Assembly: GCA_964525635.1 (NCBI GenBank)
Contig: CAZGJX010000111.1
Coordinates: forward strand, 1-12,317
DNA length: 12,317 nucleotides
Direction: 5' to 3'
From: an uncultured archaeon
Lineage (GTDB): Archaea; Asgardarchaeota; Lokiarchaeia; Sigyniarchaeales; SOKP01
Numbering within the stretch: the first letter of the stretch is position 1; each line of letters starts with the position of its first letter. Under the pieces are notes generated by a model that worked only from the letters and a program-made list of their open reading frames with translations, did not search any database and was not told the DNA's origin. Shown piece after piece: positions 141 through 12,317 of this stretch. Position numbers and translations under genes: made by a program.

Positions 141-947
141 TCAGGGTTTTTGAATTATAATATCTTTAAGTTGTGTGATAGTTTTTGATCTTAAATGCTC
201 TGTATCTTTTATACTTTCTTTAACTGAACTTAAATCAGGTTTACTTAAAGTTGCAGAATGTTCAATATTTCTTAGTCTGTGCTCAACTTCCATAATATTA
301 GAACTAAGTTTTATTACCGCATTCATAGTTGATTCTAAGACTTCTGCCATTCTATTTATTTTTATTTCGACGGTTCCATCTTTTATTGGTTTTCCATCAA
401 TAATTTGTTTAACCAAATTGACAAATTTAGGTTCTTTTGGAAAACCAGAATATATAGAAGTTAAATACAACTCATAATCAATATCATTTTCTAATAATAA
501 AGGTTCGATTAATTTTTTCAGATATTCTATATTAGATATTGTTTCTTTAAATTTGATAATTTCAGGATCGTATTTATGAAAAAATATTAAAACATATCTA
601 TTTTCATTTAATTGCTTTATTATTTTTAATATTTTTTTAAAATAATTTATACTTTCATTATAACGTTCTGAATCTTGAATATCTATTACATATATAATTA
701 AATCGATTCCTATAAAATAATGTTCGGGATCCTGTAAATATTGAATCCTATGATCTTTTTGACCTCCAAAATCCCAAATGAAGAATCTCATATCTTCAGT
801 ATCAATTTCTTGTCTATTCACTCCTCTTGTAGGTTCTAGAGATGCTAACTCATCTATACCTAAATGTCCTCCAAACCTTGATAATAGTGAAGTTTTACCA
901 GCATTGTCTAAACCTAATACGATTATTTTCTGTTCCATTTTTATCAT
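141..947 (-). CDS. Arf/Sar1-like small GTPase with C-terminal helical/coiled-coil extension
   Basis: G1 GLDNAGKTS, G2 EPTRG, G3 WDFGGQ, G4 HKYD, G5 TSI in the correct order; about 90-aa helical tail. Start may be ATG 947 or ATG 938. No Gly2 myristoylation site. Confidence 0.93.
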   Translation of the reverse strand: MIKMEQKIIVLGLDNAGKTSLLSRFGGHLGIDELASLEPTRGVNRQEIDTEDMRFFIWDFGGQKDHRIQYLQDPEHYFIGIDLIIYVIDIQDSERYNESINYFKKILKIIKQLNENRYVLIFFHKYDPEIIKFKETISNIEYLKKLIEPLLLENDIDYELYLTSIYSGFPKEPKFVNLVKQIIDGKPIKDGTVEIKINRMAEVLESTMNAVIKLSSNIMEVEHRLRNIEHSATLSKPDLSSVKESIKDTEHLRSKTITQLKDIIIQKP

Positions 948-1080
948 ATATTTTTTTGAATCTCTGTTTTTGGTTAATTTGATTGTAAAACAGTTATATT
1001 TATATAAATAACTCCTATTTTTAAGATTAATGCAAAATTATAATTTCTACTTTTTAATAGATGGTATTTAGTTAAAGATA

Positions 1081-1449
1081 TCATTTTAAAATATCTGTTA
1101 TAATTTCTCTAAATTCTTGAACTTTAATTGGTTTAGAAATATATTTATTTATACCTGCTGCAAGGATTCTCTCTTTATCTCCTTTCATTGCAAAAGAAGT
1201 AACTGCAATTATTGGAACCATTTTGAATTTATCAATTTTTCTTAACTCTTTTGCAATATCTATTCCACTCATTTTTGGTAATTGAATGTCTAAAATAATT
1301 AAATCAGGATCTCCTGATTTTATAAGTTCTAATCCTAAATCACCCTTTGTTTCAGTAAAAATTTTAATATCAGGAATTAATTTTAAAATTGCATTAAATA
1401 ATTTCATATTTTTCTCATTATCTTCGATAACATATATATTTTTAAGCAT
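1081..1449 (-). CDS. Single-domain response regulator (CheY/DivK-like receiver)
   Basis: Acidic pocket IEDN, phosphoacceptor DLIILDIQLP, AVTSFAMKGD, YISKP; no output domain. Confidence 0.96.
   Translation of the reverse strand: MLKNIYVIEDNEKNMKLFNAILKLIPDIKIFTETKGDLGLELIKSGDPDLIILDIQLPKMSGIDIAKELRKIDKFKMVPIIAVTSFAMKGDKERILAAGINKYISKPIKVQEFREIITDILK
1301..1320. repeat. Intragenic palindrome AAATCAGGA-NN-TCCTGATTT (copy 1)
   Basis: Perfect 9-bp arms with a 2-nt spacer, inside a 29-nt block (1301-1329) identical to the reverse complement of 11769-11797. Confidence 0.6.
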
Positions 1450-1455
1450 TTAATT

Positions 1456-1460
1456 ACCTC
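1456..1460 (-). promoter_or_regulatory. Shine-Dalgarno-like GAGGT upstream of the receiver gene
   Basis: Minus strand reads GAGGT-AATTAA-ATG (6-nt spacing), a G-rich element in an otherwise very AT-rich spacer. Confidence 0.5.
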
Positions 1461-1590
1461 GATAAAAATTACAGATTATTATAAATAGATAATTGTTTTG
1501 GTACTTATTTATAGGTGTTTTATTGCATATGTTTATATATTAATTGAAATATTATTTATTTATATTTTTACTATTGGATATAAAAATATC

Positions 1591-2910
1591 ATGCCTCAAG
1601 CAATTGGAGTCTTTACTTGGGATAATAAAATTGGTTCAGTATTAGATTTAAAATATCCAGAATCTGCTAAAATTTCAAATAGTTTAACTCAGAAAATTTA
1701 TATGTCTCATGCGTTTAATGAAGAATTTAATAAAGAAGAATTACTCGAAGTCAATTTTAATAATCAAACTATACTTAGTTTTTGTGATAAAAAAAGGGTT
1801 CCAGAGTTTGGATATGAAGTAATTATCCTTTTATTTGATGAAGTTGAAAAAGAAAATTTATATAAATTAAAAGTTGATTTGTTAGAATTTGGAAAAGCTT
1901 TATTTGAAAAACCAAAAGAGGAGAGAAAAGAGTATTTCTCAAATAATATTGATAAATTCTTTCAAAAATCGACAGCTAAAAAAATATTATTATTAGGAAG
2001 AGCAGGTACGGGAAAAACAAGTATAAAGCAAATTATATTTGAAGGTAAAGATCCAAAAACACTTTTATATAATCCTTTAGAACCTACTCGTGGTATCACA
2101 CCCTCAGTTTATTCTTGGCTAGATTTAAAGTTAGGTTTATTTGATACATCAGGTCAAGAACTTAAAGATCTTTTATGTGAGGAAAATCTCGATCAAACAC
2201 TTGTTTTTGAAAATTCTGATGTTATTTTATATCTTTTTGATTATCCTTTATGGAATTCAAAAAGAGAGCTTATTTTCAATGATTTAGAAAAAATCAATTC
2301 AATTATTCAAAAGGAAAAAAACCATATTCAAATAGTTTTATTTCTTCATAAAATAGACTTAATAGAAGAAAGTAATATGGATAAGGAATTGGAGCATATT
2401 ATTAATAGTATCAGAAAAAAATTTGATTTTTCAATTTATTTTACTAGTATCTTTCCTATGTTAATATATAATCTTTATAATGCTTTTTATAACATCGTGA
2501 GTAGCTACTCTGAAGATACTTTAAATATAAAGAAAATTTTAGATGAGATGACTAATGAAAATTCTAAAACTATGTGTTATATTACCAATAAAATTGACTC
2601 AATTATTGTGCAATCAATGTCGAAAGATTTTAATACACTTTTAATCAATCATATCCATAAAATGATTGCCCAATTAACCCAATCTTTTGAGAATATTGCA
2701 GTTAATGATAACATTGATCATCTTATAATATCAAGTTCGAAATCAATAAATACAATTCTTTACTATCTTAACTTACAAAAATTTAATATCAAGAATTTAA
2801 TTATCATTTCAGAAACACTTAGTGCTAACAAATTGATTTTACTCGTAGGAAAATTAAGATTAAAAATAAATAGGCATTATTATTTGGGTAAAAAACAGAA
2901 TAGTTTATAA
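1591..2910 (+). CDS. Rag/Gtr1-like small GTPase with N-terminal longin/uDENN-like domain and C-terminal roadblock-like domain
   Basis: ATG 1591 (MPQAIGVFTWDNKIGSVLDLKYP) preferred over TTG 1498, whose extension looks like translated AT-rich spacer. G1 KKILLLGRAGTGKTSIKQIIF (Gtr1/RagA-like), EPTRG, FDTSGQ, HKID, TSI. The C-terminal ~120 aa show a helix/strands/helix/strands/helix pattern consistent with roadblock. GTPase call is strong; accessory domains are moderate. Confidence 0.88.
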   Translation: MPQAIGVFTWDNKIGSVLDLKYPESAKISNSLTQKIYMSHAFNEEFNKEELLEVNFNNQTILSFCDKKRVPEFGYEVIILLFDEVEKENLYKLKVDLLEFGKALFEKPKEERKEYFSNNIDKFFQKSTAKKILLLGRAGTGKTSIKQIIFEGKDPKTLLYNPLEPTRGITPSVYSWLDLKLGLFDTSGQELKDLLCEENLDQTLVFENSDVILYLFDYPLWNSKRELIFNDLEKINSIIQKEKNHIQIVLFLHKIDLIEESNMDKELEHIINSIRKKFDFSIYFTSIFPMLIYNLYNAFYNIVSSYSEDTLNIKKILDEMTNENSKTMCYITNKIDSIIVQSMSKDFNTLLINHIHKMIAQLTQSFENIAVNDNIDHLIISSSKSINTILYYLNLQKFNIKNLIIISETLSANKLILLVGKLRLKINRHYYLGKKQNSL

Positions 2911-2956
2911 TAATACACCAAAGAAGTATTTTTTTATAAAATACAATAAAAAGAAT

Positions 2957-5740
2957 CTAAATTATTACATCTAACTTTTTAGATTTCTTTGGAAGAAAAA
3001 GAGTAAAAGTACTACCAACTCCTAATACACTTGAAAAAGTTATAGTTCCATTATGTAATTCAATTAATCTTTTTGTTAAAGATAGTCCTAATCCAGTTCC
3101 AGGAGTTGATCTTACATATGTAGAATCAATTCTTGTGAAATCCTTAAAAATTAAATTAAAATCTTTATGTGCAATGCCTATTCCTGTATCTTTTACTTTA
3201 AACATCCATTTATCGAAATATTCTTTTATTGTTAAATAAATTTCACCATCAATAGTGAACTTGATAGCATTTGTTAATAAATTTAAAAGTATTTCCTTAA
3301 ATCTTATAGGATCAGCATATATTTCAATATCCTCATCTAATCCCTTTATTAGAAATAATAATTTCTTTTTTGTGTACATTGGTTTTAATGTTGAATTAAT
3401 TTGATCTAAAATAGTCTTTAAGGAAAATTTTTGTTTATTTAAGATAATTTGTCCTGATTCTAATTGAGTAATATTTAATATATTACTTATCATGTCATAC
3501 TGATGTTCTGCTGAAGTTTTAATATCTAATAAATATTCATTTTGTTCTTTATTAAGGGGTCCAAATGTTTCCTCTAATAATAATTCAGTAAATCCAATGA
3601 TTGCATTTAAAGGTGTTCGTAATTCATGGGACATGGTAGCAAGGAATTGAGATTTAAATTTAGAAACTTTAATGATTTCTGCTTGATATAAATTTTGTCT
3701 TTCAATAGATTCTTGAAGTTGTTGAGTTCTTTTACTTACTTCTTCCTCTAAACTTTGCCTAAACTCTTCTCTTAGTTTTTCTTCTTTTTTTTTTTGAGTT
3801 ATATCTCTTATTATTGACCAAAATCCAGAGATATTATTATCGATATCTGTTTTTATCCATATTTTTATATTAACTGGGATAGTATCTCCATTTTTTTTGG
3901 TTAAAACATTTTCAAATTCTTGAAAATAATTTTTGATAAATATTTCATTATTTTGAATTGACATATCAAAAATATTTATATCTGTAGAGATGATTTGATT
4001 AAAATTAATTTGTTTTAAATTATCTTTATTAAAATCCAGCATATCTAAGAATGCTTTATTAGCATCAATAAAATTACCTTCAAGATCAGTCATTGCAATT
4101 CCATCTTTACTTGATTCAAATAATCGACGATATTTTTCTTCTGATTTTTTTAATTCTTCTTCTGCTAAATTTTTATCAGTATAATCAATTAAAGTTATTA
4201 AAATTGCTTTTTTACCATGATATTGAATAGTTTTTGAATAAATATTAATCCATTTAATATTACCAGATTTAGATATGAACCTATATAAGTATGGATCATA
4301 TACTTTTAAAGAGTCTTTCATTCTTTTTTCAAATCGATCCATTGCAATAGCTCGGTCTTCAGGATGAATATTTTGAAAAAATCTATGTTTTGACCAGTTC
4401 AACATAACTTCAATTGAATATTCATTTATATCAGAAACTGCCTTATTGATATATAAGATTTTTTCATTTTGAATTATTAATGTACCCATAAAAGATTGTT
4501 CAGTTATAATTTTAAAATTTTCCTCTGATTCTTTTAATTCAGTTATATCTTGAAGCATTAATTCGATTAATTTTAAGTTTTTAAGAGAAATTATATTCAT
4601 TCGAACAAGAACATTAGCTAATGTATTATCTTTTTTATAAATCTCTGCTTCAAATGATAGTGGGATTAATTTTTCTTTTAATACTTGTATTGATTTAATA
4701 AATGTATCGAAAGACTGAGGAGAATAGAAACAGAATTCCTTGATATTTTTTCCTATTATATCATCTTCTAAATATCCAAAAGCCTTATTAAACGCAACAT
4801 TTGTTATTAAAAACTGTAAATTCATTTCCATTATAATAATTGCGATAGGGGAATCATCAAAAAAACTTTTATATAATTTTTCTGATTCATTAAACTCTCT
4901 TGTCTGCTTTAAAATAGTCTCTTCTAATCGTTTATTTAGCTTTATTAATTTTTCTTCAGATCCCTGTAATTTTTCTCTATCTTTAAAAAGTTGAGTAATA
5001 TCTCTAAATGAAGCAACCATCTCATTCTTAGAGATCTGAAATGCAATTACTTCATATGCACCCTTTATTATTTTATCATTATAATCAATTTGATCCCATT
5101 TCCAAATTCCCCCATTCTTTGCAATTTCTTTATATTTTTGAGGTACATCTGTCTTCATTAAAGGAGGAAATGCTTCCTCAATTGTCATACCTATGAATTT
5201 TGAGCAATCTACTTTAAGGATCTCATTTGCGGCTATATTTGATCCAATGAAAACCAACTTTCTATCTGGTTTTAGTGAGTATAAATGAAATCCTAAAGGA
5301 ATTGATTCACATATCTTATCTAGTTTATTTTCAGATACCTGAAGCTTTAAATTTATATTCTTCAGAAATGTTATATCTTTTGCAATGTTTAAAATTGCAT
5401 ATATTCCTTCATTATTTTTCAAGGGAATACCATAAGTATCAAGAAATACAAAATTATCATCTTTGGTTCGAATTTTGTAACTACTCAATTTTAGTTGTTT
5501 TCCATTTTCCTTAAGTGAAGATATAACTCTCAACATTTCTTCATATTGAATTTCGTCTACTAAATGTTTAAAAGAAATATTTAAGAGCTCTTCTTTAGTA
5601 TAACCAAAAATGTTTAAAGCAATTTCATTTGCATCAAGAAAAACTCCTGTTAGATCATATACATATATTAAATCTAAAGAATACTTAAATAAATATTCAA
5701 ATCTTACTCTTATATCGTCTATACTAAATTTAATATTATT
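2957..5740 (-). CDS. Soluble multi-PAS (5 PAS) sensor histidine kinase; 5' end irregular
   Basis: H box MSHELRTPLNAIIGF, N box NLLTNAIKF, G1 DTGIGI, F box, G2 GTGLGL; five PAS repeats ending in DIT/DYT. The frame stays open for 68 codons upstream of the tracked ATG 5536, up to TGA at 5741-5743, and encodes the first half of PAS1. No obvious transmembrane segment. Confidence 0.93.
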   Translation of the reverse strand, partial: NNIKFSIDDIRVRFEYLFKYSLDLIYVYDLTGVFLDANEIALNIFGYTKEELLNISFKHLVDEIQYEEMLRVISSLKENGKQLKLSSYKIRTKDDNFVFLDTYGIPLKNNEGIYAILNIAKDITFLKNINLKLQVSENKLDKICESIPLGFHLYSLKPDRKLVFIGSNIAANEILKVDCSKFIGMTIEEAFPPLMKTDVPQKYKEIAKNGGIWKWDQIDYNDKIIKGAYEVIAFQISKNEMVASFRDITQLFKDREKLQGSEEKLIKLNKRLEETILKQTREFNESEKLYKSFFDDSPIAIIIMEMNLQFLITNVAFNKAFGYLEDDIIGKNIKEFCFYSPQSFDTFIKSIQVLKEKLIPLSFEAEIYKKDNTLANVLVRMNIISLKNLKLIELMLQDITELKESEENFKIITEQSFMGTLIIQNEKILYINKAVSDINEYSIEVMLNWSKHRFFQNIHPEDRAIAMDRFEKRMKDSLKVYDPYLYRFISKSGNIKWINIYSKTIQYHGKKAILITLIDYTDKNLAEEELKKSEEKYRRLFESSKDGIAMTDLEGNFIDANKAFLDMLDFNKDNLKQINFNQIISTDINIFDMSIQNNEIFIKNYFQEFENVLTKKNGDTIPVNIKIWIKTDIDNNISGFWSIIRDITQKKKEEKLREEFRQSLEEEVSKRTQQLQESIERQNLYQAEIIKVSKFKSQFLATMSHELRTPLNAIIGFTELLLEETFGPLNKEQNEYLLDIKTSAEHQYDMISNILNITQLESGQIILNKQKFSLKTILDQINSTLKPMYTKKKLLFLIKGLDEDIEIYADPIRFKEILLNLLTNAIKFTIDGEIYLTIKEYFDKWMFKVKDTGIGIAHKDFNLIFKDFTRIDSTYVRSTPGTGLGLSLTKRLIELHNGTITFSSVLGVGSTFTLFLPKKSKKLDVII

Positions 5741-5761
5741 TCACTTTTAAATTATTCATTT

Positions 5762-7993
5762 TTAATCTTTTTTTGGAATTGTAAAAAAAAATGTTGTTCC
5801 TTTTCTTTTTTCACTTTTAAACCATATTTCTCCACCATGAAGTTCCACAAGCCTTTTTGTTAATGCTAAACCGATACCAGAGCCAGATACATCTTTGGTT
5901 ATATCATTTTCAATTCTACCAAATTCTCTAAAGACAACATCATAATCATTTTTATTAATTTCTACTCCTGAATCATTGACTTGAAATTCCCAATGATCAA
6001 ATCTTTCAATACCACGAAAGCTAACTCCACCATCATTAGTAAATTTTATTGCATTATCAATTAAATTATAAAGGATCTGCCTAAATCTCATTTTATCTGC
6101 ATATATAATAGTATGTTGATTAACATTTTCTAAATTAAAATATAGTTTTTTTTTCATATATATAGGTTTAAAAATTGAATGGATTTGTTGAATTACAGGG
6201 TATAATTTAAAATTCTCTTTTTCTAATTTAAATTTAGCAATTTCTATTTTTGAGAGATCTAATATTGAATTAATTAACCCATTTAAATGTTCAGCTGCAG
6301 TATAAATATCATTCAAATAATCTTTTTGGTCATCATTCAATTCACCATATCCACCATCAATTAGTAAAGTTGAAAATCCAATAATAGCGTTCAGGGGAGT
6401 TCTTAATTCATGTGACATCGCAGCAAAAAATTTGGATTTAAACTCTAAGGATTTAATAAGTTGGTCTAGTAATTGTTCTCTATTTCTTTCATATTTTTTT
6501 CGAGAAGTAATATCTGAAATAAATGATTGAATTATAACGTTATCAGCGATTTTTAATATATTCGATGTAATTTCTACATTGATTTCTTCTCCATTTTTTT
6601 TTATAATTTTTGTTTCAATTGTATTACTTTTTGACATGACATACATATCATTATGGTAATACTTCTGCACAATTTCTATATTTTCTGGATCAAATAATTC
6701 AAATATTTTAGAATTTAGAAAGTCTTCTTCACTATAACCAAATAGGATCTTAGCTTTTTCATTGGCCCTTAGTATTTTTCCATTTTGATGAATTAAGAAA
6801 ATTGCTGAAGGTGCATGTTCAATCAATGTATTCATTTCGTGCAAAGTTTGTTCTAAGATCCTCACTTCTTGTTCAGATTGTTTAATGTCTGTAATATCTT
6901 GAATTAATAAATAAACTAATTTCTCATTATCTAATTCAATTAAAGAGAAAATCATCTTTAACCATAAATCTCTCTTATATTCTCTTTTAATATTAACAAT
7001 CATGGGATCAGGGATTTTATTTTGTTTTAATGCTCTAAAGATCATTTTAAAGAGGCTAATATATTGTTTTGGAAAAAGTATAATGTTTTCATAACTTTTA
7101 TTCATAATTTCATTTTTAGAATAACCAATTAATTTCTCCAATATAGAATTTGAATCTATGATTATACCATCCAAATTCAAGATTAAAATTGGATGAGGTG
7201 TTTTCTCAAATAATAATCGATATTTTTTTTCAGACTCCTTTAAAAGATGTTCAACTTGTTTACGTTCAGAAATATCTCGAATTGAGTAGAAAAATGCAGG
7301 ATTTCCCTCCCATTCAATTTCTACAGAAAAGAATTCAGAGACAACTGTAAGATCTTTATTTTGAGTTATTTTATATCCTTGTTTTTTCCCCATCATTATA
7401 GGAACATCAAAATATTGATTTAATAATTCATTTCTACTTTTTCTAAGATATTTTTCTGCTGCATGATTAACAAAACGTATTCTATATTCTTTATCAGTAA
7501 TAATTATGCTGTCAATAGTTTTTTCTATTATTTGTTTTAAACGTTTTTCATTGTCTTGTACTTCTTGTGCTAATAATTCAATTGTTAGCATCATATTGTG
7601 CCTAGCGATTGCAGAATATAAGACATGTTCCAAAATTTTTATATCAAATTGGTCTTCTATTAAATAATCTTGAGCACCTAATTGAATTGCATTTTGTGCT
7701 AATTGTTCATCTTCTAAGGAAACTATAAGAATTATAGGAATAGTTCTTGATTTTTTTCTAATTTTATAAAATGTTTCGAATCCATTGCTGTCAGGAAGAT
7801 ATAATCCTATAAGAAGTATATCTATTTCATTATTTATAATATATTCTGTAGCTTGTGATAGGGTTTTACATATATACGTGTCATAAATTGAATTTTCTGA
7901 AATTCCTAACAATGATTGAATAAACTCCATCTTTTCTGAATTATCGATAACTAAGAGTATTTTTAAGTTCTGTAATGACATTAATATATCCAA
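5762..7993 (-). CDS. Histidine kinase: degenerate receiver + 3 PAS + HisKA + HATPase_c
   Basis: N-terminal receiver fold (ILLVID...LYLPDSNG...GAQDYL), three PAS repeats ending in DIS/DIT, H box MSHELRTPLNAIIGF, N box NLIDNAIKF, G2 GSGIGL. Start is TTG 7993 or ATG 7981. Confidence 0.94.
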   Translation of the reverse strand: MDILMSLQNLKILLVIDNSEKMEFIQSLLGISENSIYDTYICKTLSQATEYIINNEIDILLIGLYLPDSNGFETFYKIRKKSRTIPIILIVSLEDEQLAQNAIQLGAQDYLIEDQFDIKILEHVLYSAIARHNMMLTIELLAQEVQDNEKRLKQIIEKTIDSIIITDKEYRIRFVNHAAEKYLRKSRNELLNQYFDVPIMMGKKQGYKITQNKDLTVVSEFFSVEIEWEGNPAFFYSIRDISERKQVEHLLKESEKKYRLLFEKTPHPILILNLDGIIIDSNSILEKLIGYSKNEIMNKSYENIILFPKQYISLFKMIFRALKQNKIPDPMIVNIKREYKRDLWLKMIFSLIELDNEKLVYLLIQDITDIKQSEQEVRILEQTLHEMNTLIEHAPSAIFLIHQNGKILRANEKAKILFGYSEEDFLNSKIFELFDPENIEIVQKYYHNDMYVMSKSNTIETKIIKKNGEEINVEITSNILKIADNVIIQSFISDITSRKKYERNREQLLDQLIKSLEFKSKFFAAMSHELRTPLNAIIGFSTLLIDGGYGELNDDQKDYLNDIYTAAEHLNGLINSILDLSKIEIAKFKLEKENFKLYPVIQQIHSIFKPIYMKKKLYFNLENVNQHTIIYADKMRFRQILYNLIDNAIKFTNDGGVSFRGIERFDHWEFQVNDSGVEINKNDYDVVFREFGRIENDITKDVSGSGIGLALTKRLVELHGGEIWFKSEKRKGTTFFFTIPKKD

Positions 7994-8160
7994 CTATTTA
8001 TTCGAGTTATTATCATAATTTTTTTTTATGATTAGATCTTTCTTTTAGAATATTAAAATCTACAATCATTATATCAGAAGTATAATTTAAATATAATTTT
8101 TTTAAATTTCCTTTTAGAATATATGACTAATAATCCGGTCTTCTTCTATATAAAGACAAT

Positions 8161-9054
8161 TTAATCCAAATTTAAATGAATTTCATTTAAATTAAGGAAA
8201 GTATAAAATAATTCAATTCCTTTATCCTCTTTATTTAATTCTGCTTTATTGATTTCTTTTTTTAATCCTGTTTTTAAATATTCACATCTTTGAGTTAATC
8301 TAATAAAATTCTTAAAAGATAAATATTCAATCATTCCTAATTTTTCCAATCTTTCTAAATGGTAATTCAATTTATTAATATCTAAATTGAATTTATATGA
8401 TAAATGTTCTACTTTATATTTTACATATAGCTCACATTTAATAATTATAATAATTTCTTGTTTTAAGTCTTCAAATTCTGTTTTACTTATTGGAATAAAA
8501 TCTTCTTGATAGATTGAATTTATTATATCTAAAAAAATTTGAAATGTATTGTAGAAATATTCTCTTGTAATAGATGTTCCAAATATCTTTATACTAATAC
8601 CATTATTTGTATAATTACTTTTTAGGTAATTCTTAATTATTTTAATTTTTTCAGATAAATAAGAAGATTTGACCGTGTCAATTTTATGAAGAAATATAAT
8701 TATCTTACAATTTAAAAGAGAATTTAATTCTTTTTTAATTTTTATTATCTTTACTAAAAAGGAGATAATTTTTTCTGATGAATTATTTATATCAAAAACA
8801 CAAGTTATCACATGAGATTGATCAAATACATCTCTATCTTTTAAGAACCAATTTTTATTTTCTTGACCAGCTAAATCAAAAATTCCTAATTGAGAATTGA
8901 ATAGTAAAAAAATATTTGAATTTACTCCTCTTGTAGGTTCTAAAGAGGTATCTAATAATTTAATTGGATTTGCTTTCTGAAAAAATACTTTAGTAATTGT
9001 AGTTTTGCCAGTTGCAGGGGGTCCTATGAGTATAATTTTCTTTTTGTTTGCCAT
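8161..9054 (-). CDS. Rag/Arf-related small GTPase with C-terminal winged helix-turn-helix-like domain
   Basis: G1 GPPATGKTT, EPTRG, FDLAGQ, HKID, TSI. C-terminal VEHLSYKFNLDINKLNYHLERLEKLGMIEY...IRLT matches the ArsR/MarR/TrmB-type wHTH pattern. Confidence 0.88.
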   Translation of the reverse strand: MANKKKIILIGPPATGKTTITKVFFQKANPIKLLDTSLEPTRGVNSNIFLLFNSQLGIFDLAGQENKNWFLKDRDVFDQSHVITCVFDINNSSEKIISFLVKIIKIKKELNSLLNCKIIIFLHKIDTVKSSYLSEKIKIIKNYLKSNYTNNGISIKIFGTSITREYFYNTFQIFLDIINSIYQEDFIPISKTEFEDLKQEIIIIIKCELYVKYKVEHLSYKFNLDINKLNYHLERLEKLGMIEYLSFKNFIRLTQRCEYLKTGLKKEINKAELNKEDKGIELFYTFLNLNEIHLNLD

Positions 9055-9091
9055 TATGCCTTTTTTATAGTTAATTTTATTGTAATACTAA

Positions 9092-9772
9092 TTAACTACC
9101 TTGCAAAGAATTATGTAAATTCTTCTCAATAGTTTCAATGATATCATCACATGAATCAAGCATTATTTCAACATATTTAATAATGAGATCTTCAGATAAT
9201 TTTCCAGTTTTACTTTTTTCTTCTAAAATTAATTCACAAAATCCACGAATTGTATTAATTTCGCTCCTAATCTCCAGATTTGCAGATTCTAAAGGAATTA
9301 TTTCATTTTTGTCTAAATAAATTTTTTGAATTTCAATGAAGAAATTTTTAAAAATTGAATTATCATCCGTTAAAATGTTCTTTTCTCCCATTTTTCTGAA
9401 TAATGTTTCTATTCTCTGAAAATATATCGTAGGAATTAATGGATAATCAACATGCCTCAATATTATTATTGCATATAATTGTTTTTTACCTCGAGCAGCT
9501 TCATCTTTTATGTCTACTTTACATATCTGAGAATAAAACTTATCATAATTTAAAATAACAAATTTATTTTTTGTGTTTAAAGCATCTCTGAGTAAATTTC
9601 TTATAAATTGATCATCATCAATTTTTACAGGGGAAAAAATAGCTATGGGTCCTAATATATGGTCATATTTTCCAATTATTATAATAAAAGGATATTGTTC
9701 AATATAATCTTTAAATCCATTGTATGGATACATATAACTTTCCAAATTTTTTTTATTTAATTGATTTTCCAT
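9092..9772 (-). CDS. Putative folliculin/SMCR8-like longin (uDENN) domain fused to a His-less HisKA/DHp-like domain
   Basis: ATG 9772 (MENQLNKK) preferred over TTG 9835. Motifs FIIIIGKYDHILGPIAIFSP and IKDEAARGKKQLYAIIIL; the C-terminus ANLEIRSEINTIRGFCELILEE aligns with the neighbouring kinase H box MSHELRTPLNAIIGFTELLLEE. The CDS itself is secure; the domain calls are by eye. Confidence 0.72.
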   Translation of the reverse strand: MENQLNKKNLESYMYPYNGFKDYIEQYPFIIIIGKYDHILGPIAIFSPVKIDDDQFIRNLLRDALNTKNKFVILNYDKFYSQICKVDIKDEAARGKKQLYAIIILRHVDYPLIPTIYFQRIETLFRKMGEKNILTDDNSIFKNFFIEIQKIYLDKNEIIPLESANLEIRSEINTIRGFCELILEEKSKTGKLSEDLIIKYVEIMLDSCDDIIETIEKNLHNSLQGS

Positions 9773-9909
9773 TATTCTTTTTCTGAACAGTTCTCTTTTG
9801 GTTAGGTAGTTTTTAATTCTTAAAGAAATAACCAAATAAAATATAACAAATTTTATTAATATATTTTAGTGTTTAAAAAAAGACCTGACAATGATATCTA
9901 TTATGTATT

Positions 9910-9921
9910 AAAAAAAAAAAA
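9910..9921 (-). terminator. Possible archaeal oligo-U terminator (T12 on the minus strand)
   Basis: A12 run on the plus strand about 100 nt downstream of the 10024 stop. Homopolymers are common here, so support is weak. Confidence 0.25.
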
Positions 9922-10023
9922 CATCCAACGATATAAAAGAAATAAAAATTAATTACTTGAAAGGATCGGCCTATCTTTAATTCTCTGATAATTAAATTTT
10001 TTTTTTTTAGAATATTCAATTAA

Positions 10024-11439
10024 TTATCCAACTAGTCCTTTTTTAATAAATAAATCCTTTAATTCACTAATTATTTGTTGTCGTGCGTTTGCTCTATTTA
10101 TTTGTCTATTAGCGGTAGGCGGAGGTGTTTTACTTGGTGGAGGCGGATGTATAGATTTTGGTGGATTTAATCCCTCTAGTTCCTGTGTCTTGGGCGGGGC
10201 CATTGGTGGTTTCGCTAAATCAGGAGCTTCAATTGGTTTTGTTAATTCTACCATTCTTAATTGATCAACTAATGTAGTTTTAGTTTTATTTGGCAATTTA
10301 ATAGATGCCATTGGTTTTGGAACACCAACTTTTTTAGATACTTTTTGTTTTTTCTTTTTCTTCTTCTTTTTAGCTATATCATCAAATGACACTTTTTGAA
10401 ATGGAACCTCAAATAGTGATCCTGAAATCGTTGTTGGAAGAACTCTATATAATATTTTTTTGATATCAGAGAGATCTGAAGAAATTTTATCCATTAGTTG
10501 AAGATTTATATCTAATATCCTTTGTACTTTCCTATCAATTTCAGGTAATTTATCCTCCTTATCTTGTTCAATTTCTTTACTAAAAATATTCTTAATGCTT
10601 CTTGCAATTTCTGGTTCATTTGAATAAAAGTTATAAATACTTGTAGGTATAATTTCTACTATCCATGATTTTTCATGTTCTATAAATATATTTGTTACTT
10701 TTTCTGTAATATATTCTAATTTAATCTGATAATCTGGATCATTTACAAGATCAGAATCTGCTTTATTTAATAAAATTAAAATATATGGAAATTCATCTAA
10801 ATAACCCAAAATTTCAACTAAATCACTTAAGTATTTTAGTGCTATATCATATCTAACATCATCTTGAGAATCAATAACAAAAATTAGAACGTCTATTTGA
10901 ACAAAAAACCTTTCTGGTTCTTCAAGGTATTCATCGATATGATTTTTTTGTCCTCCTAAATCCCATAAAATTAAATTTAATTTTGATGATTTAAATTCTT
11001 CAACATTAACTCCAACGGTTGGTTCTAGATTTATCAAATCATTATAGTTATAATCATTAACTAATCTGTTTATTAAAGAAGTTTTACCTGCAAAATCCAA
11101 ACCAGCAACAACCACCTTCATTTTTTGTTCTTTTATATAAGTTTTTCTTTTATTCCATGCATTAGCTATTAATTTAGAAGCAATAAAGATTTTTTTTAAG
11201 GTTTTTTCCGAAATTATTGATTGCTCTAAAAAATTATCATATACTGATATATCAATAGAAGCGAAATCTCTAATGGTTTTAATATTATTTTTATTAAGAA
11301 ACACCAATTCTTCTTTTTCAATTCCTTTTAGTTTTTCAAGGGATAGATCTAACACGGTCTTGATATTATCTGGATAGTAATCTAATTCTAAAAATCGATC
11401 ACAAAAATATTTAATTATTGTTTTTGCAGAATCGGACAT
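10024..11439 (-). CDS. Arf-like small GTPase with N-terminal HhH-like domain and C-terminal coiled coil, poly-Lys, Pro-rich linker and terminal helix
   Basis: G1 GLDFAGKTS, EPTVGVN, WDLGGQ, NKAD, TSI; N-terminal LEKLKGIEKEELVFLNKNNIKTIRDFA; K8 run; PPMAPP/HPPPPSKTPPP; terminal ARQQIISELKDLF. Confidence 0.92.
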   Translation of the reverse strand: MSDSAKTIIKYFCDRFLELDYYPDNIKTVLDLSLEKLKGIEKEELVFLNKNNIKTIRDFASIDISVYDNFLEQSIISEKTLKKIFIASKLIANAWNKRKTYIKEQKMKVVVAGLDFAGKTSLINRLVNDYNYNDLINLEPTVGVNVEEFKSSKLNLILWDLGGQKNHIDEYLEEPERFFVQIDVLIFVIDSQDDVRYDIALKYLSDLVEILGYLDEFPYILILLNKADSDLVNDPDYQIKLEYITEKVTNIFIEHEKSWIVEIIPTSIYNFYSNEPEIARSIKNIFSKEIEQDKEDKLPEIDRKVQRILDINLQLMDKISSDLSDIKKILYRVLPTTISGSLFEVPFQKVSFDDIAKKKKKKKKQKVSKKVGVPKPMASIKLPNKTKTTLVDQLRMVELTKPIEAPDLAKPPMAPPKTQELEGLNPPKSIHPPPPSKTPPPTANRQINRANARQQIISELKDLFIKKGLVG

Positions 11440-11651
11440 TATTATATCATCTATTATAAATTTTTAAATTTGTCTGAAAAATAAATCAATTTTCAATTTT
11501 AATTAATGAGATTTTTATTTTTTCAAAATTTTTTTTTATAATAAATATCTACTAAAAGATTAAAGTTATATTAAAGAACTTTTTTTTTATTTTTACCAAT
11601 CGTTTATCAATAATTAAGCAATAAATGTTTGTTGATATAGAGTAGAGATCA

Positions 11652-12014
11652 ATGAAGAATGTATATATAGTTGAAGATGATTCAAAAAACATGAAATTAT
11701 ATAAGGCGATTTTAGGGCAATTTCCAGATCTAAAAATTTTTGAAGAAGTTGAAGGAGATTTAGGACTTGAACTTATAAAATCAGGAGATCCTGATTTGAT
11801 TATTTTAGATATTAGATTACCAAAAATGACCGGAATAGAAATTTGTCAGGAGTTAAGGAAGATTGAAAGGTTTAAAGATGTACCAATTATTGCTGTTACT
11901 GCATATGCTATGAAAGGTGATGAAGAACGCATTTTAGAAGCAGGATTTGATGCTTATATTACGAAACCAATTCGTGTTTTGGAATTTAAAAACAAAATTA
12001 AACATTATCTTTAG
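11652..12014 (+). CDS. Single-domain response regulator (CheY/DivK-like receiver), paralog of 1081-1449
   Basis: VEDD, DLIILDIRLP, AVTAYAMKGD, YITKP; about 81 of 119 aligned residues identical to the other receiver by manual count. Confidence 0.96.
   Translation: MKNVYIVEDDSKNMKLYKAILGQFPDLKIFEEVEGDLGLELIKSGDPDLIILDIRLPKMTGIEICQELRKIERFKDVPIIAVTAYAMKGDEERILEAGFDAYITKPIRVLEFKNKIKHYL
11778..11797. repeat. Intragenic palindrome AAATCAGGA-NN-TCCTGATTT (copy 2)
   Basis: Same palindrome at the equivalent codons (KSGDPDL) of the second receiver gene. Confidence 0.6.
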
Positions 12015-12055
12015 AATTAATTGCTATTTTAAAACTAAATGTAAATTATTTTTAA

Positions 12056-12317
12056 TTAGTTATTTATTCTCAGATCAGTTAGAATAGTAAGATGAAAATC
12101 ACTTCCCTTATCTATCTCACTTTTAACAGTTATTTGCCCTCCAAGTATATTTACTAGTTTTTGAGAGAGATATAAACCAAGTCCTGTCCCCCCATATTTT
12201 CTTGTTTCAGACATATCTAATTGCTGGAAAGGTTGAAACAATTTTCCTATATTTTCTTTTTCAATTCCAATTCCATTATCAATTATATGAACATGTAGCT
12301 TACTATGTATAACATAT
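12056..12317 (-). CDS. 3' end of a third histidine kinase (HATPase_c), truncated by the window edge
   Basis: The frame is open to the window edge: ...HVHIIDNGIGIEKENIGKLFQPFQQLDMSETRKYGGTGLGL... gives G1, F and G2 boxes. The tracked TTG 12241 is an internal codon. Confidence 0.92.
   Translation of the reverse strand, partial: YVIHSKLHVHIIDNGIGIEKENIGKLFQPFQQLDMSETRKYGGTGLGLYLSQKLVNILGGQITVKSEIDKGSDFHLTILTDLRINN

Follow-up and report, generated by a model that had tools for sequence, protein, structure and literature searches.

Fusions of NPRL2-like longin domains to two-component domains are numerous in Asgard archaea, and the study that described them proposed that two-component systems equipped with 'eukaryotic' regulators form the hub of Asgard growth regulation (Liu et al. 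2021, bioRxiv 10.1101/2020.10.19.343400, Fig. 5c). For Asgard longins bearing a Gly-Pro (GP) motif and an arginine, termed 'FLCN/SMCR8-type', a possible activity as GTPase-activating protein (GAP) has already been raised (PMC12290439). In Actinobacteria, the conservon (AGPS, PMC13343842) brings together a kinase (CvnA), a roadblock protein (CvnB), a DUF742 protein (CvnC) and a Ras-like GTPase (CvnD). Rag-, Arf- and Rab-like GTPases number in the dozens in Asgard genomes, next to a large complement of longin and roadblock proteins, and both the pairing of regulators with GTPases and their inputs are hard to assign. Genes for eukaryotic signature proteins lie mostly outside conserved neighbourhoods (Liu et al. 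2021), and the GTPase genes of strain MK-D1 do not, as a rule, share operons with genes for longin or roadblock proteins (Tran et al. 2024, PMC10933270). The locus described here, a Lokiarchaeial contig of 12,317 bp (CAZGJX010000111.1, hereafter the window), is an exception to this uninformative layout and defines candidate regulator-GTPase pairs. Its ten genes (g1 to g10, Table 1) encode four Arf/Gtr1_RagA GTPases, three PAS histidine kinases, two REC-only proteins (all Pfam assignments) and g7, a predicted folliculin-type longin fused to a histidine kinase-like hairpin. We find that this island is a real and conserved hybrid module. The principle of such domain fusions was already known; what is added is the island itself, of which a literature search found no description.

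We compared 20-kb stretches around g7 from 20 further genomes (stretch L048 is the same as L003). In all 20, which represent three families of one order, g7 was found among GTPases, kinases and receivers, and orthologs of g8, g7, g6, g4/g5, g3 and g2 were linked, often in one co-directional array. Every gene of the window has its counterpart, in the same order, in locus L003 from a genome of the window's genus. The cultured Promethearchaeum syntrophicum MK-D1 has the island too (L040 and L096), with its g7 ortholog at about 2,089,029-2,089,604 of NZ_CP042905.2. The g7 family is single-copy and gave 231 matches, the best 120 of them at 53-91% identity in Lokiarchaeota/Promethearchaeota; it occurs in 53 of 400 Asgard genomes, limited to the same three families, and 34 clusters match g7 among 1.84 billion representative proteins. 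The neighbours of g7 are also specific. Among GTPase open reading frames (ORFs) near g7, 60/69 have one of the window's four GTPases as best match, compared with 72 GTPase-like ORFs available in the window's genome; g4 or g5 is the best match for 38/61 kinases (26 in this genome), and the window's receivers for 30/52 receivers (15 in this genome). By these sequence comparisons, the island neighbours are orthologs and not arbitrary paralogs.

The spacing is operon-like. In 18 of the 20 independent loci, g7 stands first in a co-directional array with gaps mostly below 60 nt, in the order g7 > (GTPase with winged helix-turn-helix, wHTH) > kinase > kinase (> GTPases > receiver); the arrays of L036, L037, L041 and L052 contain kinases and two or three GTPases, with a receiver in some. 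The consensus core opens, upstream of g7, with a g8-type GTPase (about 500 aa), which is mostly encoded divergently from g7 and is its most constant neighbour (16 of the 20 other genomes). After g7 come a g6-type GTPase of about 297 aa and two kinases; a g6-type gene (about 290-320 aa) directly follows g7 in 9 other genomes, and a shorter fragment in 2 more. Further on, a g3-type GTPase of about 440 aa lies beside a Rag-like GTPase of about 515 aa, the latter absent from the window. These two genes are adjacent in most other islands, and since they are neighbouring Rag-type genes with gaps of mostly 0-10 nt, the arrangement is as expected for a heterodimer pair. The core also holds a g2-type receiver, 73-83% identical in most islands (island orthologs, 58-83%). 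Orthologs of g1 adjoin g2 only in the window's own genus.

Could such a cluster arise by chance, or by tandem duplication, in a lineage rich in GTPases and kinases? The families are indeed large: the 4.45-Mb genome contains 41 PF04670, 29 HATPase_c and 15 REC matches, and our own hidden Markov models count 72 GTPase-like ORFs, 40 two-component genes and about 26 kinases in it; in addition, g2 and g9 are local paralogs. Even so, chance would place about 0.1-0.2 GTPases and some 0.1 two-component genes in 12.3 kb, whereas 4 and 5 are observed. Moreover, the same orthologs are linked in every one of the 20 other genomes, and the single-copy g7 is always within the island. Conserved linkage, orthology and operon-like arrays contradict this explanation, which we hold to be very improbable.

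At the centre of the island, g7 matches no Pfam family above threshold, and its profile found no match among PDB sequences. Its AlphaFold2 (AF2) model (mean predicted local distance difference test, pLDDT, 80.6) has strands at residues 30-37, 41-46, 71-75, 79-89 and 97-107, plus helices, in the longin topology beta-beta-alpha-beta-beta-beta-alpha-alpha, and a C-terminal hairpin of two helices (158-189 and 194-223). When the model was aligned to about 48,000 PDB representatives with VIA-align, the best match was Nprl2 (8fw5_B, Z 12.7, rmsd 2.8, 129 aligned residues), and the next were FLCN (6nzd_H, Z 11.8) and the SEA complex (8adl_S, Z 11.7); a Lokiarchaeal roadblock-longin protein was also matched (8yqg_B, Z 11.3). 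Neighbours of g7 in the Atlas include NPRL2, SMCR8, Avl9 and a Heimdall 'Folliculin' cluster. The GAP-type longins FLCN, NPRL2, SMCR8 and C9orf72 share a specific mark, a GP motif located where the beta1-beta2 loop ends or strand 2 starts, adjoining the arginine finger, and this motif is found in some Asgard longins (PMC12290439). In g7, the motif Y36-D37-x3-G41-P42 has its GP at this very place, opening strand 41-46, and A93-R94-G95 is located in the beta4-beta5 loop; Y36, D37, G41, P42, A93, R94 and G95 are invariant in all 41 family sequences. The Pfam Folliculin profile matches the 41 members at residues 87-115, around the Arg loop, with sub-threshold scores (best E 3.8e-5).

The C-terminal hairpin was compared with a profile of the local kinases' DHp domains (hhalign, E 2.2e-4, probability 45%), and the alignment pairs N-L-Q-I-R-S...G-F of g7 with S-H-E-L-R-T...G-F of the kinases. 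Pfam HisKA matches 15 of the 41 members, all sub-threshold (best E 0.002). The g7 profile also matches, at E 8.4e-14, the 556-aa metagenomic protein P0381, composed of six tandem Pfam HisKA repeats (E 1.6e-37) that likewise have no His. At the H-box position, residue 166, the g7 family has Leu (34 sequences), Met (6) or Ile (1) and never His, while R169 never varies and N165, S170, N173-T174 and G177-F178 vary little or not at all. No CA (HATPase_c) domain follows in Pfam or in the AF2 model, the protein ending with the hairpin, and two g7 relatives, P0372 and P0374, have an added N-terminal PAS domain. On these alignments, the hairpin is a HisKA/DHp homolog that lost its phospho-acceptor His, and g7 as modelled is a folliculin/NPRL2/SMCR8-type longin fused to it, with a putative GAP role. 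The architecture of P0381 is itself unusual among pseudo-DHp proteins: its repeats read S-F-K/N-L-R-T instead of S-H-E-L-R-T, after a Gly/Ala-rich N-terminus.

All four GTPases (g1, g3, g6 and g8) keep the P-loop, the switch-I Thr, DxxGQ and [NH]KxD; g1 has intact G1, switch-I Thr, DxxGQ and HKYD motifs. The AF2 model of g3 (pLDDT 84) shows three domains, longin, Rag G domain and roadblock, and Foldseek matches RagA/RagC/Gtr1/Gtr2 at E ~1e-13 over 310-330 columns, as well as LokiRagO (8yl2) and LokiRagM (8zla). With a Rag-type G domain followed by a C-terminal roadblock, and an HKID motif, g3 falls within the Rag/Gtr definition; its orthologs outside the genus are 45-61% identical over their full length, and candidate Rag-like partners sit on contig C121 of the same genome. 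In the g3 longin, W10 and D11 are found in all 39 covering sequences and G15 is invariant, a spacing equal to that of C9orf72 W33-D34...G38-P39 (spacing per PMC12290439), and position 69, in the loop matching the Arg loop of g7, is only R or K.

For the C-terminal part of g6, a profile (A4) searched against PDB gave 39 matches, every one of them to wHTH regulators (best E 0.002), among which HlyU/ArsR, Lrp, MarR and TFE; g6 orthologs have sporadic sub-threshold HTH matches, and we assign a wHTH to g6 with moderate confidence. A prediction of the g7-g6 complex with alignments scored 0.00, which counts neither for nor against binding. Pfam gave nothing significant on the GTPase extensions. The conserved 107-aa N-terminal domain of g8 is of unknown fold, and its profile found no relatives, PDB included. 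The g8 tail (10024-10527) contains a helix, the motif SLFSVPFEKVP, a poly-Lys tract and PPMAP, and ends with a polyproline run, LKPPPPPPK, and a C-terminal R..VISELKEMFxKRGLV motif. The combination of polyproline with an amphipathic basic motif recalls a profilin/actin-recruiting (WH2-like) arrangement or a polybasic membrane anchor.

On the two-component side, g4 and g5 have intact H, N, G1 and G2 boxes, with SHELR H-boxes, and no transmembrane segment was found in g4, which is soluble; indeed, all ten proteins of the window look soluble. The acceptor Asp is present in 16/16 g2-type sequences and is kept in g9. A classical two-component core is thus at hand, with His-bearing kinases (g4, g5) and receivers having their acceptor Asp (g2, g9); the window's receivers all lack an output domain, g2 and g9 matching only REC in Pfam. 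At the DNA level, the paralogs g2 and g9 form a 351-nt inverted repeat of 73% identity (1093-1443 and 11655-12005) that flanks the island core.

In other genomes, many islands encode a further protein of about 290 aa, in which an N-terminal domain precedes a His-bearing DHp and a REC domain; its presence suggests a multi-step relay. This phosphotransfer-type protein (about 290-307 aa) has the H-box ISHALKEPLTTIKGY, a C-terminal REC and no ATPase domain, and is usually beside the g8-type GTPase. REC ORFs of about 250-296 aa of this type are found in L036-L039, L044-L047, L049 and L052, and two copies lie elsewhere in this genome (G000; C4:2933-3892 and 4326-5249). That the C4-type proteins are REC-longin fusions was considered and ruled out by their domain composition. 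Two other proteins, L054:915-2389 (C80) and L055:4334-7809 (C85), join a REC to a C-terminal domain of about 180 aa with WDDxxGP and an Arg-Gly loop, and each is encoded near a 187-188-aa Arf/Rag-like GTPase gene, with a kinase in between on C85. Pfam detects only REC in them, and the longin identity of their C-terminal domain was not confirmed: the best hhalign comparison, of C80 with the g3 longin, gave E 7e-4 and a probability of 26%, an Atlas search of the C80 domain stayed below 0.8 and is a lead only, and hhalign among the g7 longin, the g3 longin and the C80 and C85 domains found nothing significant.

How might these parts work together? We lean, with moderate confidence, towards a functional coupling of the two systems through g7, a single-copy hybrid adaptor. 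The PAS kinases would respond to a cytoplasmic cue by phosphorylating the single-domain receivers. The His-less DHp of g7 would serve both dimerisation and docking of a kinase or of a phosphorylated receiver; in Caulobacter, the His-less pseudokinase DivL docks DivK~P. Docking would gate a GAP-type action of the g7 longin on the neighbouring Rag-like GTPases, and the output may include DNA binding through the g6 winged helix. The protein-protein contacts, the GAP activity, the direction of the signal and the output are what we infer here. Coupling is favoured by the existence of the PAS-g7 fusions (P0372, P0374) and of the published NPRL2-like longin fusions to two-component domains, by the intact catalytic motifs of all GTPases and kinases together with the acceptor Asp of g2 and g9, and by the fact that g3 is a full Rag-type protein with roadblock and g6 has a wHTH. 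A more specific version, which we regard as tentative and rather unlikely in its full detail, makes g7 a phosphorelay-gated Rag-GAP: a phosphorylated receiver (g2/g9) on the DHp would switch the Arg-finger longin pocket toward g6 and g3. The relay would then replace the amino-acid sensors of eukaryotes, in an archaeal forerunner of the FLCN/GATOR1-Rag system with direct transcriptional output. In that version, g7 would dimerise via its DHp, or pair its longin with the WD-motif longin of g3, as SMCR8 does with C9orf72.

Several observations weigh against coupling through g7. The island is missing from about two thirds of genomes of the same family, some of them 95-99% complete, and is for this reason accessory. 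For GTPases of this genome that lie elsewhere, proximity to two-component genes does not exceed the chance level (5 observed, 4.1 expected, P=0.39), so that the association is a property of the island and not a genome-wide wiring rule. The N-terminal REC of g5 (7658-7960) has Gly at the acceptor position, in the window and in L003; as the residue is Asp in 8 orthologs from other genera, this REC is, from the alignment, a recently arisen pseudo-receiver. g7 has no DENN or NPRL2 C-terminal domain and no known heterodimeric partner, and the equivalence of Arg94 with FLCN R164/NPRL2 R78 is based on fold topology and the sub-threshold Pfam alignment, not on a residue-level superposition. Longin domains in general are mostly guanine nucleotide exchange factors or platform modules, not GAPs.

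The relay and the longin/GTPase set could instead be co-regulated, answering to the same conditions or sharing promoters, and work in parallel with no direct phospho-coupling, the g7 hairpin being a kinase-derived dimerisation coiled coil. The structural matches of the hairpin are indeed generic helical hairpins, its similarity to HisKA is sub-threshold in Pfam for single sequences, and the island-restricted association of GTPases with two-component genes fits as well. However, kinases, GTPases, g7 and a receiver are joined across genera into single co-directional arrays whose gaps measure 0-60 nt, the H-box-like motif of g7 is more conserved than a plain coiled coil requires, and the PAS-g7 and longin fusions exist. 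We hold this explanation to be possible, though on the unlikely side.

The signal could also flow the other way, with g7 and the GTPases upstream: the g7 DHp would heterodimerise with a kinase DHp and tune autophosphorylation according to nucleotide state, and the receivers would be the output. Mixed dimers between a His-less DHp and the local kinases are conceivable in principle, since the H-box region of these kinases closely resembles that of g7, and in the conservon, where the kinase-GTPase signal path is unresolved, an accessory protein controls the kinase CvnA. But the kinases own several PAS sensor domains, the receivers have no output domain whereas g6 has a wHTH, and the GAP-type motifs of the longin indicate an action on the GTPase, so that a reversed or modulatory flow appears improbable to us.

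The window is one entire contig (C111) of a 4.45-Mb assembly of 245 contigs, with about 24% GC, from a salt-marsh metagenome; a search of sequencing runs listed DNA runs from the salt marsh and none of RNA. It covers nearly the whole island and is filled by ten ORFs of 86-859 aa, every product of which is of signalling type, nine of them by Pfam and g7 by its model and profiles (Table 1).

Table 1. Genes of the 12,317-bp window, with the basis of each assignment.
Gene	Position	Strand	Description	Basis
g1	141..947	-	Arf/Rag-like small GTPase, 268 aa, coiled-coil tail of about 100 aa	Pfam Arf 1.2e-24, Gtr1_RagA 1.9e-23
g2	1081..1449	-	Single-domain receiver, 122 aa	Pfam Response_reg 1.9e-24
g3	1591..2910	+	Longin-Rag GTPase-roadblock, 439 aa; ORF open from 1498	Pfam Arf/Gtr1_RagA, AF2 model
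g4	2957..5740 (first ATG 5536)	-	Multi-PAS histidine kinase	Pfam PAS x3, HisKA, HATPase_c
g5	5762..7993	-	REC-PAS-PAS-HisKA-HATPase hybrid kinase	Pfam
g6	8161..9054	-	Rag-like GTPase (HKID) with probable C-terminal ArsR/MarR-type winged helix, 297 aa	Pfam Gtr1_RagA 2.6e-16
g7	9092..9772	-	Predicted folliculin/NPRL2/SMCR8-type longin with His-less HisKA-like hairpin, 226 aa; ORF open to 9835	
g8	10024..11439	-	Arf-like GTPase (NKAD) with N-terminal domain and polybasic/polyproline tail	Pfam Arf 1e-22
g9	11652..12014	+	Single-domain receiver, 120 aa	Pfam Response_reg 4.8e-24
g10	12056..12317	-	C-terminal part of third histidine kinase, truncated by contig end	HATPase_c fragment

Some gene ends required attention. 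Translation of g3 probably starts at 1591 (439 aa), which matches its orthologs, and that of g7 at Met22, position 9772 (226 aa). Counted from the first ATG of g4, the g4-g5 gap is 225 nt; however, 68 open codons 5' of this ATG (5537-5740) align with the N-terminal PAS region of an ortholog, so that the true gap is about 22 nt or less, and since coding runs upstream of the first ATG/GTG/TTG, the start codon of g4 would be non-canonical. The two genes share one frame, with two stop codons, six codons apart, between them. As for g10, its HATPase_c domain is split, profile positions 37-107 being in the window and 2-32 at C234:12-104. The start of C234 overlaps the right end of the window by 15 nt and carries the 5' part of the gene beside rps12; in the colinear L003, a 622-aa kinase adjoins S12 at the place of g10.

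The first-pass annotation, made from the letters of the window alone, had listed ten signalling genes (four GTPases, three kinases, two receivers and one longin-DHp protein), and Pfam together with the analysis of g7 agrees. It had seen that the genes from 11439 to 2957 are co-oriented, with a 37-nt gap between 9092 and 9054; all are on the minus strand and the gap, between g7 and g6, is as given. The short distance it reported between the two kinases was right in substance once the N-terminal extension of g4 is included, and the receivers are without DNA-binding output, as it had said. Its longin-DHp fusion with putative GAP role holds as a description, given the folliculin/NPRL2 fold, the GP, the invariant Arg and the His-less HisKA C-terminus; the wHTH that it placed among the outputs has moderate support as a domain of g6, whose C-terminal profile matches only wHTH regulators. 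It had also proposed a comparison of gene neighbourhoods across Asgard genomes, with scattered orthologs as the result that would speak against a hybrid system, and the comparison instead found linkage in 20/20 genomes.

In the window's genus, the island is placed inside the otherwise ultra-conserved rps12-rps7 operon. The order in L003:5178-20305 is NusA-S12, island, S7, and in the window's own genome contig C121 carries S7, oriented as expected, and after it a further two Rag-like GTPases. This placement is genus-specific, because S7 is far from g7 in five other genomes. At L002:1-609 (G169), an EF-2-like gene, which may be an EF-2 paralog, flanks the island, with S7 on another contig. We also found g7 orthologs (51-56% identity) on the short contigs L086, L090 and L095, from metagenome-assembled genomes labelled Odinarchaeota and Bathyarchaeota. 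As the g7 family is otherwise strictly confined to one Lokiarchaeial order, these contigs are more likely mis-binned than real occurrences. A phyletic profile of g3 against g7 (family f1; about 40 genomes with both, about 10 discordant, about 85 with neither) was given no weight of its own, since the binning of metagenome-assembled genomes drops linked genes jointly and only 11 candidates were scored per genome. Among the intergenic repeats of the window, no convincing common operator motif was found in this AT-rich DNA.

The island offers a defined and conserved set: one folliculin/NPRL2-type longin, specific Rag/Arf-like GTPases, PAS kinases and receivers. It bears on two questions: did longin GAPs for Rag-type GTPases arise before eukaryotes, and was prokaryotic two-component signalling their first driver? 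Because the set is also found in the cultured MK-D1, both can be tested with purified proteins.

Compared with FLCN (acting with FNIP), NPRL2 (in GATOR1/SEACIT) and SMCR8 (with C9orf72), g7 is alike in its fold, in the GP of strand 2 and in its association with the Rag family, and it has a conserved Arg in the neighbouring loop. It differs by its length of 226 aa and by the His-less HisKA hairpin, which replaces the DENN or NPRL2 C-terminal domain; for the partner longin that the eukaryotic proteins have, the N-terminal longin of g3, with its C9orf72-like WDxxxG, is a candidate. With the Rag/Gtr GTPases (RagA-D, Gtr1/2) and the Lokiarchaeal proteins of 8yl2 and 8zla, g3 shares the Rag G domain, the C-terminal roadblock and HKxD; it has an extra N-terminal longin, and no Ragulator, TOR or lysosome context. 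g7 fits both the domain-combination class and signalling proposal of Liu et al. 2021 and the longins of PMC12290439. Those studies cover fusions and motifs, whereas here the linkage is multi-gene, to specific GTPases, kinases and receivers. The first-pass interpretation is supported in part, in its gene inventory and in the linkage; its idea that a proto-Rag module received a prokaryotic input layer had already been put forward in general form, from domain fusions (Liu et al. 2021).

Bacterial systems offer functional parallels. The docking of a phosphorylated receiver on the His-less DHp of DivL (reverse signalling) is a model for the g7 hairpin by analogy only, DivL differing from g7 in that it retains a CA domain and has another kinase as its target instead of a GTPase. 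In Myxococcus, MglA/MglB/RomR-RomX with Frz input likewise puts a small GTPase under a roadblock GAP and a phosphorelay-controlled receiver protein. Neither an MglA-family GTPase nor MglB is present in the island, and RomR is a receiver with an output region, whereas the island's receivers are single-domain and the adaptor g7 carries the DHp-like domain. The likeness to RomR/MglA/MglB drawn in the first-pass annotation is a loose one, and the actinobacterial conservon is closer. It is also a prokaryotic operon in which a sensor kinase is joined to a small GTPase via a regulator of the roadblock/longin superfamily, without a classical DNA-binding response regulator. No window protein matches Robl_LC7 or DUF742 in Pfam and there is no stand-alone roadblock protein in the window, so that the resemblance is functional and not one of family membership. 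In another lineage, the conservon uses an MglB-type roadblock with DUF742, one Ras-like GTPase and no stand-alone receivers; the island has a folliculin-type longin with a DHp hairpin and four to six Rag/Arf-like GTPases.

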